Of a stretch of 36,211 bases of DNA, positions 6,979-36,211 are shown one piece after another. This DNA is from Candidatus Nomurabacteria bacterium (GTDB taxonomy: Bacteria; Patescibacteriota; Minisyncoccia; Phycocordibacterales; UBA9973). Each line of letters begins with the position of its first letter. Position 1 is the stretch's first letter. The stretch spans positions 1 through 36,211 of the forward strand of contig CALRBJ010000004.1 of assembly GCA_943354205.1 (NCBI GenBank). Direction: 5' to 3'. A program made the translations under genes and the position numbers. Under the pieces are notes generated by a model, which worked only from the letters and a program-made list of their open reading frames with translations, ran no database searches and was not told where the DNA came from.

Positions 6979-7020
6979 GGGCAAATCGCATTTTATTATA
7001 AAGTAACATAACTAAATTAT

Positions 7021-7275
7021 ATGGCGGAAAAAACATCTGCATTTATGAAACCAATGACTTTGAGTCCAGAGCTCGAAGCAGTAGTCGGAAAGGGCCCAAT
7101 GCCTCGCTCCGAAGTAGTGAAGGCTCTTTGGGTATATATAAAGAAGAATAATCTTCAAGACCCAAAGGCAAAGCGCAATATCGATGCCGACGCAAAGCTA
7201 AAGGAAGTATTCGGTGGCAAAGCGCGCGTAGACATGTTTGAAATGACAAAGCTCGTTTCAAAACACCTTTCGTAA
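7021..7275 (+). CDS. SWIB/MDM2-domain protein
   Basis: 84 aa. LSPELEAVVGKGPMPRSEVVKALWVYIKKNNLQDPKAKRNIDADAKLKEVFG matches the SWIB domain pattern. Confidence 0.85.
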   Translation: MAEKTSAFMKPMTLSPELEAVVGKGPMPRSEVVKALWVYIKKNNLQDPKAKRNIDADAKLKEVFGGKARVDMFEMTKLVSKHLS

Positions 7276-7358: not shown

Positions 7359-7390
7359 AAAAATCCAGATCGAGTCTGGATTTTTGTTTT
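7359..7390 (+). terminator. Rho-independent terminator
   Basis: aaaaatccaga-tcgag-tctggattttt followed by a T tract. Confidence 0.8.
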
Positions 7391-7699: not shown

Positions 7700-7732
7700 C
7701 AAAAATCCGCCGTTGTGGCGGATTTTTGTTTT
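7700..7732 (+). terminator. Rho-independent terminator after csp
   Basis: aaaaatccgcc-gttgt-ggcggattttt. Confidence 0.85.
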
Positions 7733-7769: not shown

Positions 7770-9056
7770 ATGAAAACCAAACTCGAAACTAATTTAGAGA
7801 CCGATTACGATGTTATCGTGGTTGGTGGCGGCGCATCAGGCATGATGGCGGCTTATACAGCCGCACTGCGCGATTTGCGAGTGTTGGTAATAGACAAGAA
7901 TAAAAGACTTGGTGAAAAGCTCTCGATCACTGGTGGTGGGCGATGCAACATCACCAATGCCGAGGAGGATGTACACACATTTTTAAAAAATTACGGCAAA
8001 GCAAATAAATTTTTATATTCGCCATTCTCCCAATTCGGCGTGAAAGACACTTTTGATTTTTTTGAATCACATGGTTTACCGCTCGTGGTCGAAGCTCGCA
8101 AGCGCGCTTTTCCAGAAACCATGAGCGCTGAATCGGTGCGCACTCTCATGGAAAAACTTTTAAAGAAAAGGGGAGTAGTGGTCAAACTCGGCCGACCGGT
8201 TAAAAAGATAATGCGCGATGAAAACGGAGTGACTGGTGTAGTCGTCGATGGCACCACCTATATTGCAAAGACCTATATCCTCGCCACTGGGGGCCTCTCG
8301 CATGCCGAGACGGGTTCTTCTGGCGATGGCTTCGGCTGGCTCTCCGATTTGGGGCATACCGTGGCCGAGCCGACCCCGTCTATCGTGCCCCTTTCTGTAA
8401 AAGATTCCTGGGTGCACAAGCTATCGGGTGTATCGCTCTCGTTTATGAAAATAACCTTTTTTGAAAATGCCCGCCCGGATGACCCGGTCGGACGGGGCGT
8501 GAAAAAATTCCAACGCAAAGGCAAAATTTTATTTACTCACTTTGGCCTCTCCGGCCCACTTATTTTAAATAGCGCGCACGCTGTAGCTGATTTATTTCAC
8601 GCCGGTGTGGTAACGGCCACGATAGACATGTATCCCGACACCGACATTGGCACCCTGGAATCTAAAATCATAAAAATATTTGATGCGAACAAAAATAAAA
8701 TTTTCAAAAGCGTGATAAAAGAGTGCGTGCCCGAGGGCATGACCGAAGCCGTGATTTCCAATTCTAAAATAGACAGCGCCAAAAAAGTGCACAGCATCAC
8801 CCGCGAAGAGCGCCGAGCATTTGTAGAGCTTTTGAAAGCCATGCCGCTCACTATCACCGGCCTCATGGGCTACGACCGCGCGGTTATCGCGGATGGGGGA
8901 GTATCGCTCTCCGAAGTAGATATGCGCACGATGCGAAGCCTCAAGTGCCCAAATTTGGCTATCACCGGCGACCTACTACATGTAAATCGCCCATCGGGAG
9001 GCTTTTCGCTCCAGCTGTGCTGGACTTCAGGCTATGTAGCGGGCATGCATGCCTAG
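7770..9056 (+). CDS. HI0933/BaiN-family NAD(P)/FAD-dependent oxidoreductase
   Basis: YDVIVVGGGASGMMAA dinucleotide fold, ITGGGRCNITN, LFTHFGLSGP. Carries in-frame repeat copy A at 8460-8507. Confidence 0.9.
   Translation: MKTKLETNLETDYDVIVVGGGASGMMAAYTAALRDLRVLVIDKNKRLGEKLSITGGGRCNITNAEEDVHTFLKNYGKANKFLYSPFSQFGVKDTFDFFESHGLPLVVEARKRAFPETMSAESVRTLMEKLLKKRGVVVKLGRPVKKIMRDENGVTGVVVDGTTYIAKTYILATGGLSHAETGSSGDGFGWLSDLGHTVAEPTPSIVPLSVKDSWVHKLSGVSLSFMKITFFENARPDDPVGRGVKKFQRKGKILFTHFGLSGPLILNSAHAVADLFHAGVVTATIDMYPDTDIGTLESKIIKIFDANKNKIFKSVIKECVPEGMTEAVISNSKIDSAKKVHSITREERRAFVELLKAMPLTITGLMGYDRAVIADGGVSLSEVDMRTMRSLKCPNLAITGDLLHVNRPSGGFSLQLCWTSGYVAGMHA
8460..8507 (+). repeat. GC-rich palindromic in-frame module, copy A (encodes FENARPDDPVGRGVKK)
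   Basis: 38/40 nt identical to 22327-22366 in the same codon phase. Imperfect hairpin gcccgcccgg...ccggtcggacggggc. Confidence 0.9.
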
Positions 9057-12973: not shown

Positions 12974-13030
12974 TCACAAAAGCGAAAAAGATTAAAGCAG
13001 TTTAATCTTTTTGCGCTCCCGCTTTTGTGA
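12974..13030 (-). terminator. Long interrupted hairpin in the tRNA-Glu 3' trailer
   Basis: Outer arms tcacaaaagcg (12974-12984) and cgcttttgtga (13020-13030). Inner arms aaaaagattaaa and tttaatcttttt around loop gcag. The outer arm overlaps the last 3 nt of the tRNA. Confidence 0.4.
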
Positions 13031-13099
13031 CTCTACCGGGAATCGAACCCGGATTTAAAGCTTGAGAAGCTTCCGTCCTAACCGTTAGACGATAGAGCC
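13028..13099 (-). tRNA. tRNA-Glu (anticodon CUC), no encoded CCA
   Basis: Reverse complement is GGCTCTATCGTCTAACGGTTAGGACGGAAGCTTCTCAAGCTTTAAATCCGGGTTCGATTCCCGGTAGAGTCA. Cloverleaf with a 7-bp acceptor (one G-U), D arm GTCT/GGAC, anticodon loop TTCTCAA and T arm CCGGG-TTCGATT-CCCGG. Confidence 0.9.
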
Positions 13100-21606: not shown

Positions 21607-22614
21607 ATGGCATTTATCGATGAAGTAAAACTAAATTTGAAAGCCGGCCGAGGGGGCGATGGCGTGGTGCGCTGGCGTCGTGAGAAATTCATCGACAAAG
21701 GCGGGCCCAATGGTGGCGACGGTGGTCGCGGAGGCAATGTCTATGCGCTCGCGACTCGCGATATTTTCGGCATGGCTCGGTATCGCCACCAGCGCGAATT
21801 TACAGCCGAGCGCGGTCTAGACGGCATGGGCGCGCAAAAACACGGCGCTGACGGCGCTGATTTATATTTGGAATTTCCGGTCGGCTCAGTTATAAAAAAT
21901 GATTACACTGGCGAGGAGATAGAACTTTTGGAAGAAGGTCAAAAAGAAATGCTTTTGAAAGGCGGGAGCGGCGGCTTTGGCAACGAGCACTACAAGAGCT
22001 CGACCATGACGACCCCGACCAAAGCTACCAAAGGCAAGATGGGCGAAGAAGGAAACTTTGCTGTTGAGCTTCGCCTTTTTGCCGATGTGGGATTGATCGG
22101 TTTGCCAAATGCCGGCAAGAGTTCGCTTTTAAATGCGCTGACAAATGCAAAAGCAAAAATAGGGGACTATCAATTTACTACGCTCGACCCAAACCTCGGG
22201 GATTATTTTGGATACATCATCGCCGACATTCCGGGGCTTATCGAAGGAGCGAGCGAGGGCAAGGGCCTCGGCACGAAATTCTTGCGTCATATAAAACGCA
22301 CAAAAATGCTGGTACACCTCGTGTCGTTTGAAAATGCCCGCCCGGATGATCCAGTCGGACGGGGCGCAGATATGAAAAAAGTATACAAAGAAATTCGCAA
22401 GGAATTGAAGCAATACGGCGATGGATTGGTAGATAAAAAGGAAATAATCCTTCTGACTAAAACCGATGTTTCCAATCCGAAAGATATTGAAAAAAGAGTA
22501 AAAGAATTTGAAAAACTCACCGAGAATCCTGTCTTTGCAGTCTCGCTCTACGACGACAAATCTATCAAAAAGTTTGCGGATGCGTTGATTAAAGTTTTGA
22601 AGAAAAAAAGTTAG
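21607..22614 (+). CDS. obg: GTPase Obg
   Basis: Obg fold GGDGGRGGNV. G1 GLPNAGKSSL, G3 DIPGLIEGA, G4 TKTD. Carries in-frame repeat copy B. Confidence 0.95.
   Translation: MAFIDEVKLNLKAGRGGDGVVRWRREKFIDKGGPNGGDGGRGGNVYALATRDIFGMARYRHQREFTAERGLDGMGAQKHGADGADLYLEFPVGSVIKNDYTGEEIELLEEGQKEMLLKGGSGGFGNEHYKSSTMTTPTKATKGKMGEEGNFAVELRLFADVGLIGLPNAGKSSLLNALTNAKAKIGDYQFTTLDPNLGDYFGYIIADIPGLIEGASEGKGLGTKFLRHIKRTKMLVHLVSFENARPDDPVGRGADMKKVYKEIRKELKQYGDGLVDKKEIILLTKTDVSNPKDIEKRVKEFEKLTENPVFAVSLYDDKSIKKFADALIKVLKKKS
22327..22380 (+). repeat. GC-rich palindromic in-frame module, copy B (encodes FENARPDDPVGRGADMKK)
   Basis: 38/40 nt identical to 8460-8499. Both differences are synonymous. Same codon phase. 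Confidence 0.9.
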
Positions 22615-36137: not shown

Positions 36138-36166
36138 AAAAAATCCCGCCTTGGCGGGATTTTTTG
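36138..36166 (+). terminator. Rho-independent terminator
   Basis: aaaaaatcccgc-cttg-gcgggatttttt. Confidence 0.85.
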
Positions 36167-36211
36167 TTTTGTGTCTCTATTGTACCAAGCTCGAACAATT
36201 TTTCAAAACAA

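Follow-up and report, generated by a model that had tools for sequence, protein, structure and literature searches.

Rickettsia palindromic elements (RPEs), which are ∼100 to 150 bp long and form the families RPE-1 to RPE-8, are known only from the genus Rickettsia. The mobile GC clusters and byp elements of yeast mitochondria are very short GC-rich palindromes that have spread in a less GC-rich genome and can land in protein genes; short AT target duplications usually border the GC clusters, and the byp elements are skipped by the ribosome. Insertion sequence (IS) elements of the IS200/IS605 family and palindrome-associated transposable elements (PATEs) need two different hairpin ends and span at least 100 nt, while miniature inverted-repeat transposable elements (MITEs), 70 to 300 bp in length, have IS terminal inverted repeats and a target-site duplication of fixed length. 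Repetitive extragenic palindromic (REP) sequences are described as species-specific and, like RPEs, are reported to occur at times in frame inside genes (PMC3733652, PMC6006769), and the restriction of RPEs to Rickettsia is implied in the former paper (PMC3733652). Subclasses of REP-associated tyrosine transposases (RAYTs) have been reported in Bacteroidetes and Planctomycetes, and IS200/IS605 elements combine duplication-free insertion beside a short motif with reliance on DNA hairpins and a preference for single-stranded targets (PMC6006769). The element considered here, a GC-rich 27-nt hairpin unit designated E, is present in two copies (A and B) in a single metagenomic contig of 36,211 nt (CALRBJ010000004.1 of assembly GCA_943354205.1; the whole contig is referred to as the window). 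It lies in frame inside the genes for an HI0933-like flavoprotein and the GTPase Obg, whose best protein hits come from Patescibacteria/Paceibacterota. The current analysis indicates that E is very probably an inserted, recently mobile interspersed element and that it apparently represents a family of REP/RPE-like mobile hairpins not found described before.

A preliminary description of the window, made from the sequence alone, had reported a 40-nt palindromic repeat shared by the two genes, with similarity resuming after a 6-nt indel to give copies of 48 and 54 nt. The repeat is real: positions 8460-8499 and 22327-22366, both on the + strand inside long open reading frames (ORFs), are identical at 38 of 40 positions, and the two differences (GAC/GAT and CCG/CCA) are both synonymous. 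Because the copies lie 690 and 720 nt from their respective ATG codons, they are in the same codon phase, as had been stated. The closest relative of the Obg protein (P0002, 89% identical) reads VSFEN followed directly by GADMKK, and that of the flavoprotein (P0122, 81%) reads FFEN followed by GIKKF, both without the insert; in the homologue alignments, both hosts are indeed longer here than their closest relatives. At the DNA level, the syntenic contigs L003 (Obg) and L004/L005 (flavoprotein) contain the empty sites TTTGAAAAC/GGCGCGGATATGAAAAAA and TTTGAAAAT/GGCATAAAAAAG, respectively, and alignment with the window genes leaves one 27-nt gap each. The insert, CCCGCCCGGATGAyCCrGTCGGACGGG, falls in both genes within the GGC glycine codon that follows the native Phe-Glu-Asn (TTTGAAAAT G^GC); it adds ARPDDPVGR, restores the split Gly codon, and brings no target-site duplication. 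The empty orthologues also contain TTTGAAAAT (FEN), the last Gly codon, and the tgaaaaaa further downstream, which shows all three to be native: FEN and the trailing G, previously counted as cargo, belong to the target, the apparent resumption of similarity is host sequence, and the proposed module lengths give way to a unit of 27 nt. The central proposal of a lineage-specific in-frame insertion into tolerant loops is borne out, as the nearest orthologues lack exactly these 27 nt.

Copy A, together with G8469 and the GC at 8497-8498, encodes flavoprotein residues A234-R242 plus the regenerated G243 and corresponds to the family consensus (loop variant CCCG); copy B encodes Obg residues A244-R252 plus the regenerated G253. 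The respective nhmmer matches span 8469-8497 (E value 2e-10) and 22336-22364 (4e-9). A 31-nt core with Y and R at the variable positions has no other match in the window and none in 100 shuffles, and fuzzy and nhmmer searches of the window for degenerate additional copies returned these two only. The high local GC content of the module, pointed out before, is not an outlier, given that ∼60 other 27-mers in the window reach at least 74% GC; with a window GC content of 43%, the genome is also not the markedly AT-rich one that had been assumed.

The two window copies are ordinary members of a dispersed family. The unit has the form CCCGCCCGG-ATGAyyyrG-TCGGACGGG, in which CCCGCCCGG and TCGGACGGG pair as an imperfect 9-bp stem, containing a single C.A mismatch and a single G.T pair, around a loop of 9 nt (ATGAyyyrG). 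The window copies and the copy in L001 show three substitutions among them, every one in the loop. One genome per species (GTDB) was scanned with the pattern CCCGCCCGGATGANNNNGTCGGACGG, a 26-mer with four free loop bases and 22 of 26 bases fixed. It was found in at least 120 stretches of species-representative genomes with unrelated flanks, which provided at least 123 unique copies, so the expectation of further copies elsewhere proved correct; a fuzzy search of the same loci added two diverged copies and no more. Among the matches listed, the only bases conserved outside the unit are a G at position -1 (106 of 123 copies) and a G at +27 (84 of 123). The hosts in the same list are mostly Bacteroidota (Chitinophagaceae, Saprospirales, and Sphingobacteriales), along with anammox Planctomycetota (Scalindua/Brocadiaceae), Saccharibacteria, Peribacteria (Peribacteraceae), Paceibacteria (Paceibacterota), and one gammaproteobacterial metagenome-assembled genome (MAG). 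Thus, E is not confined to the candidate phyla radiation (CPR), the framing used in the preliminary description, and its main reservoir among the sampled genomes is Bacteroidota. It is also carried by four cultured isolates in the list, Agriterribacter humi, Niabella hibiscisoli (in a 4.6-Mb contig), Terrimonas sp. R1, and Niastella populi, which excludes a MAG artefact. At least 25 genomes contain several copies, and copies from the same genome share loop variants above chance when compared with copies of different genomes (21 of 56 pairs versus 10.9 expected; p = 0.003), reflecting the spread of E within genomes. No Rfam 15 family covers E in the window (at gathering thresholds) or in eight E-bearing loci (at E values up to 1). 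Full-text literature searches found no description of its sequence, peptide, or concept, and E is absent from the text-format supplementary files of both REP papers (PMC3733652, PMC6006769).

Evidence of recent mobility comes from comparisons of filled and empty sites. Only P0001, P0005, and P0121 carry E among the 240 fetched homologues. P0005 is an Obg protein, 68% identical to that of the window, that has E at the same site; its insert is present in two independent assemblies (NCBI and Logan), and its seven nearest relatives (86 to 89% identical) are without E, so Obg has been hit twice independently at one site. Outside E, the two filled Obg genes agree at 32% of third codon positions; inside it, they agree at 7 of 9. 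Four filled/empty pairs (the window flavoprotein, the window Obg, RlmN in L079/L131, and L129/L130) each show one 27-nt gap with no duplication. The RlmN genes of L079 (filled) and L131 (empty) are 84% identical, with the gap at TAT G^GG AAA AAA, and in the RlmN gene of L130 the site used elsewhere by E is occupied, after GAAAAT, by a member of a sister subfamily, V (CCCGCCTGAATGACAAAGTCGGGCAGG, peptide ARLNDKVGQ); the RlmN site has therefore been hit by two subfamilies. L129 and L130 are 94.5% identical over 2.1 kb, and their sole indel is an E unit in the loop of the V copy (AAT^GAC), whose translation here follows the alternative open frame (PARMTRSDG). Judging from this alignment, the E copy of L129 represents a fresh insertion in an older V copy, and L017 also appears to contain E within a V copy. 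In subfamily V, CCCG(C/T)CTGAATGACA(A/C)AGTCGGGCAGG, represented in L130:501-1574, L129:501-1601, and L017, the position of the stem mismatch differs from that in E, and V copies themselves serve as E targets (L129 and, apparently, L017).

The target of E is a preference, A/T-rich sequence followed by G^G with TGAAAA enriched, and not a fixed motif. The left flanks are C-poor and often A-T-G; TGAAAA occurs in them 9 times versus 0.94 expected and AAAATG 6 times versus 0.78 (∼8- to 10-fold enrichment), and TTTGAAAAY^GG was the site of three separate events. Intergenic copies often sit at the tips of larger hairpins: their flanks pair with each other at -15 kcal or below in 35% of the cases, compared with 11% for permuted flanks, and E is found at the tips of terminator-like hairpins, of GTAG-type REPs (in anammox genomes), and of other palindromes. 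A consistent target duplication could be rejected, since 64% of the copies among the matches listed have no flanking direct repeat and the repeats of the minority vary in length.

A metagenome scan for the junction TTTGAAAAY+E gave a single match, L126, with no true copy: L126:744-766 (JGI metagenome contig Ga0123353_10580978) was judged to be a chance look-alike, with YFENARPDDDRPRRA diverging after GATGA. The unrelated ORF there reads YFENARPDDDRPRRAVEA, which matches 23 nt of FEN+E exactly and then diverges. A 20- to 21-nt perfect palindrome, CCTGCCTG(N)CCGG(N)CAGGCAGG, recurs in the Bacteroidota loci L015 (two copies), L036, L051, L074 (two copies), and L076; one of the L015 copies is in frame in a histidine kinase, a few codons past an E copy. 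Another palindrome, of 31 to 32 nt, CCCGCCCGAACGTACC(C)GTTCGGTACGGGCGGG, is found in L038 and L051, and the E copy of L090 is centred in a similar one.

Among the matches listed, 73 of 125 copies are located in ORFs of at least 150 aa, where the reading is ARPDDPVGRG for 43 and PARMTRSDG for 5, the other 25 being in reverse orientation. A TGA lies in the third forward frame, and a search for genes split by this frame, as a test for ribosomal bypass or splicing, found no convincing case, so that E seems to be translated rather than bypassed; in the phase used in the window, which has no stop, the product is ARPDDPVGR. Being exactly nine codons long and adding no duplication, E cannot shift the frame. 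The bias toward one frame can be attributed to insertion at G^G in GGN glycine codons, which are common in loops, combined with selection removing harmful insertions. The 41 in-frame hosts matched 84 Pfam families between them, including HATPase_c kinases (8), sortilin/BNR, ETF-alpha, AIR synthase-related proteins, radical SAM, TsaD, UvrD, LigD, thiolase, and NAD synthase. In the AlphaFold models, which are of modest mean confidence (mean predicted local distance difference test [pLDDT] scores of 75 for Obg and 68 for the flavoprotein), residues A244-G253 of Obg, the insert, form a coil of low confidence that links strand 234-240 to helix 256-269, and the flavoprotein insert, N233-G243, is a turn between strands 222-232 and 244-256. 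Both are thus modelled as loops, as had been anticipated. The window inserts are most likely neutral passengers in surface loops; E would be a selfish passenger and no functional module of either protein.

Histidine kinase HATPase_c domains carry E repeatedly at a single position (...VETKE/ARPDDPVGR/GEGT.F.I.LP) in L009, L015, L024, L030, L044, L054, L083, L105, and L125, including two tandem paralogues in L105; a hot spot and inheritance through gene duplication are both possible. In two other Patescibacteria lineages, the same β-hairpin loop of the HI0933-like flavoprotein is occupied by another GC-rich mini-hairpin common to both, CCCTGAGCGAAGTCGAAGGG (peptide PERSRRV), at L127:1687-1706 (P0232) and L128:1702-1721 (P0152). 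Near-copies occur in the Bacteroidota loci L033, L053, L075, and L086; the sequence is absent from the window and may represent a second family of in-frame mini-elements. The Obg loop after VHLVSFEN has different lineage-specific inserts of 5 to 25 residues in other homologues (such as P0003, P0015, P0077, and P0109), e.g., VSEGSGTSPVRSKVSKKPVSSNG in P0015.

Similarly to E, REP sequences are GC-rich imperfect palindromes of 20 to 40 nt, interspersed and multicopy, with no terminal inverted repeats or obvious target duplication, and E falls within the size and copy range used to define them (∼20- to 65-nt GC-rich imperfect palindromes with many interspersed copies). In contrast to typical REPs, its loop is 9 nt instead of 2 to 5 nt, it is often found inside coding regions rather than extragenically, and it inserts into the loops of genuine GTAG REPs; no REPtron, i.e., a RAYT gene flanked by cognate repeats, involving E was found in ∼800 kb of E-bearing DNA. 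The RPEs, invoked earlier as the precedent, resemble E as palindromic repeats that lie in frame in many unrelated functional genes and add a surface peptide segment, and insertion of E in diverse functional ORFs was indeed observed in the window genes and the 41 hosts. The parallel holds for this manner of insertion and breaks down on length and on the Rickettsia restriction: E measures 27 nt, occurs in several phyla with non-Rickettsia hosts, and has no sequence similarity to RPEs. The GC clusters and byp elements differ in being organellar, and E, unlike the byp elements, is apparently translated. IS200/IS605 elements and PATEs share with E the duplication-free insertion near a short motif; unlike them, E is a single hairpin with a target preference in place of a fixed tetra- or pentanucleotide, and no linked TnpA was found. 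The MITE features do not fit E, given its length and the absence of duplications in the four filled/empty pairs. E is unusual in combining a length of nine codons exactly with duplication-free insertion, a sequence nearly identical from phylum to phylum, and a frequent location in coding sequence.

The full explanation favored here, an inserted 27-nt hairpin family carried as a passenger and perhaps moved as single-stranded DNA by an enzyme acting in trans, appears probable as a whole, albeit well short of certain. Under this scheme, E belongs to a family of near-identical hairpins, each window site being one inserted 27-nt copy. Insertion in both window genes was precise, without target-site duplication, inside the Gly codon after Phe-Glu-Asn; the nine-codon unit keeps the frame, so that both genes remain intact and a surface loop of each protein becomes longer. 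E might move by being joined, in folded single-stranded form, to target DNA that is itself single-stranded; such targets would be hairpin loops or A-rich ...AAT^G sites that replication leaves accessible. The enzyme would be supplied in trans and could most plausibly be an HUH/Y1-type nuclease like those active on REP sequences and IS200/IS605 ends, as HUH/Y1 single-strand cleavage and joining is the best-fitting known chemistry, exemplified by REP/RAYT and IS200/IS605 (PMC6006769). Taken by itself, this single-strand, trans-enzyme route is proposed only tentatively, by analogy with those systems.

A number of observations weigh against this explanation. E lacks the unpaired GTAG/GTGG or CGTC tag of catalogued REPs (on its reverse strand, CGTC lies within the stem and there is no unpaired tag), its flanks conserving a single G on each side, and it is near-identical across phyla, whereas REPs are described as species-specific. 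No transposase family, including Y1_Tnp (Pfam), is enriched in the 150 ORFs adjoining intergenic copies; a motif screen for HUH/Y1 proteins in the ORFs beside intergenic copies likewise revealed no linked transposase. In the ∼800 kb of E-bearing DNA (1838 ORFs, searched by motif and phmmer), there is one Y1_Tnp gene only, in L062, and it is flanked by its own GTAG REPs and not by E. The proposed imperfect hairpin with both substitutions in its loop stands at the family level, but the window copies do not fold more stably than dinucleotide shuffles (z from +0.06 to -1.0), with nothing significant on either strand or in longer contexts, so that the hairpin is supported by the family-level architecture only. 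Moreover, the scan pattern fixed the stem, so that its invariance among the 123 copies partly reflects how they were selected. With two copies in the window, activity in this particular genome is not demonstrated. Finally, ∼10% of the copies have flanking direct repeats of variable length (6 to 13 nt), compared with 1.2% of controls, which a duplication-free model leaves unexplained.

The L062 locus, from a Brocadiaceae MAG, deserves separate mention. In L062:1-1100, the Y1_Tnp (IS200-like/RAYT-like) gene occupies positions 254-793, with GTAG-type REPs on both sides, and the downstream REP has a net +27-nt insert in its loop (ACCTACCCGAACTGATTGGTCAGGCGGG, 16/28 identical to E). The E copy of L062 (locus 7014-7180) sits in the loop of a GTAGGGTGGATT...AATCCACC REP.

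No vector was evident: E had 0 matches in the IMG/VR viral contigs and none in the INPHARED phages, and the PLSDB plasmids gave only partial chance matches, in GC-rich hosts. E and V could conceivably form a hitherto unrecognised class of ultra-short, "codon-compatible" mobile hairpins, 27 nt long, without duplication and with most frames open, that cross phyla without phage or plasmid and are moved by a trans-acting enzyme or by host replication/repair. On this doubtful but possible reading, the size, the lack of duplication, and the mostly open frames would make coding sequence and hairpin loops both colonisable, and other mini-hairpins (of the PERSRRV and CAGG types) might belong to the same class.

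The main alternative to the trans-enzyme route dispenses with a dedicated enzyme and has the hairpin spread by host replication/repair, through oligonucleotide capture at gaps or loop-to-loop template switching, with the cross-phylum identity of E reflecting what universal machinery accepts. The lack of a linked transposase in ∼800 kb, the absence from phage and plasmid collections, the preference for hairpin tips, and the near-identical sequence in distant phyla would all follow naturally; however, no known route inserts a defined 27-mer precisely at non-homologous sites, the missing linkage weighs little because REPs and MITEs are normally distant from their enzyme, and the patchiness among close relatives fits an enzyme present in some hosts only. 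This alternative, including its account of the cross-phylum identity, is considered unlikely. Less likely still is purely local copying, in which E would have entered one gene once and reached the other by template switching or ectopic gene conversion via the microhomology TTTGAAAAT...GGC, with no transposition or target preference. The two sites do share 9 nt to the left and 3 to 4 nt to the right of the insert, and the window contains two copies only. Such a history is hard to reconcile with the independent filling of the Obg site in a lineage with seven empty nearest relatives, the two subfamilies at one RlmN site, or the more than 100 copies in mutually non-homologous flanks; the TGAAAA/AAAATG enrichment suggests a target preference, and the window copies differ at two loop positions, copy A being the family consensus.

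Retention of the 27 nt or of ARPDDPVGR for a role, whether in the mRNA (a hairpin causing translational pausing or binding some factor) or in the protein (a loop motif that a partner recognises), has little probability. The nucleotide conservation of E, far above that of the host genes, and the strong preference for one reading frame would be expected of a functional module, yet the closest relatives do without E, many copies are intergenic, reversed, or in another frame, and the hosts are many unrelated protein families. The peptide is, besides, modelled as a loop, with low confidence in Obg, and the frame bias is explained by insertion at G^G in GGN codons and removal of the TGA frame. As for a chimeric assembly of one copy or an old integral peptide of both proteins, the window is a single metagenomic contig and the loop length varies naturally in both protein families. 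The recovery of the P0005 insert from the NCBI and Logan assemblies, the copies in cultured isolates such as Niabella hibiscisoli, and the intact, in-frame state of both ORFs nevertheless make an artefact extremely improbable, and an ancestral integral peptide was rejected with 3 of 240 homologues carrying E.

If the insertion of a mobile 27-nt hairpin is accepted, E would be among the smallest mobile DNA elements reported in bacteria, with a size and reading frames that look suited to survival inside genes. Some of the lineage-specific insertions of 9 residues in loops of conserved proteins (e.g., Obg, RlmN, histidine kinases, and ETF), which affect alignments, phylogenies, and structure models, would thereby be accounted for; ARPDDPVGR is evidently a loop insert tolerated by many protein folds. 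It would also provide a sharp marker of recent DNA exchange among habitat-sharing Patescibacteria, Bacteroidota, and anammox bacteria. The nature of the machinery able to cut and join a hairpin of 27 nt with such precision would then be a tractable mechanistic question, and experiments are possible because cultured isolates of Niabella, Terrimonas, Niastella, and Agriterribacter carry E.

Coordinates of the two E copies, their native flanks, and their host genes in the window
Feature	Position	Strand	Basis
Host gene 1, HI0933-like NAD(P)/FAD-dependent flavoprotein, 428 aa, intact	7770..9056	+	ORF and homologue alignment
Native left flank TTTGAAAAT+G (encoding Phe-Glu-Asn, then base 1 of the interrupted Gly codon), outside the element	8460..8469	+	Present in empty L004/L005
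Copy A, 27-nt hairpin unit CCCGCCCGG-ATGACCCGG-TCGGACGGG	8470..8496	+	Single clean 27-nt gap versus orthologue L004/L005
Native right flank GC GTG AAA AAA (Gly codon remainder and Val-Lys-Lys)	8497..8507	+	Empty orthologue GGC ATA AAA AAG
Host gene 2, GTPase Obg, 335 aa, intact	21607..22614	+	ORF and homologue alignment
Native left flank TTTGAAAAT+G in Obg, outside the element	22327..22336	+	TTTGAAAAC+G in empty L003, and in L001 with an independent copy
Copy B, 27-nt unit CCCGCCCGG-ATGATCCAG-TCGGACGGG, two loop substitutions	22337..22363	+	Single clean 27-nt gap versus orthologue L003
Native right flank GC GCA GAT ATG AAA AAA	22364..22380	+	Empty orthologue GGC GCG GAT ATG AAA AAA

The sole RNA gene detected in the window is a tRNA-Glu(CTC) gene at 13027-13099 on the - strand. 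Terminator-like hairpins of the form AAAAATCC(stem-loop)GGATTTTTGTTTT are located between genes at 7359-7390, 7701-7732, and 36139-36170, two of them just upstream of the flavoprotein gene.

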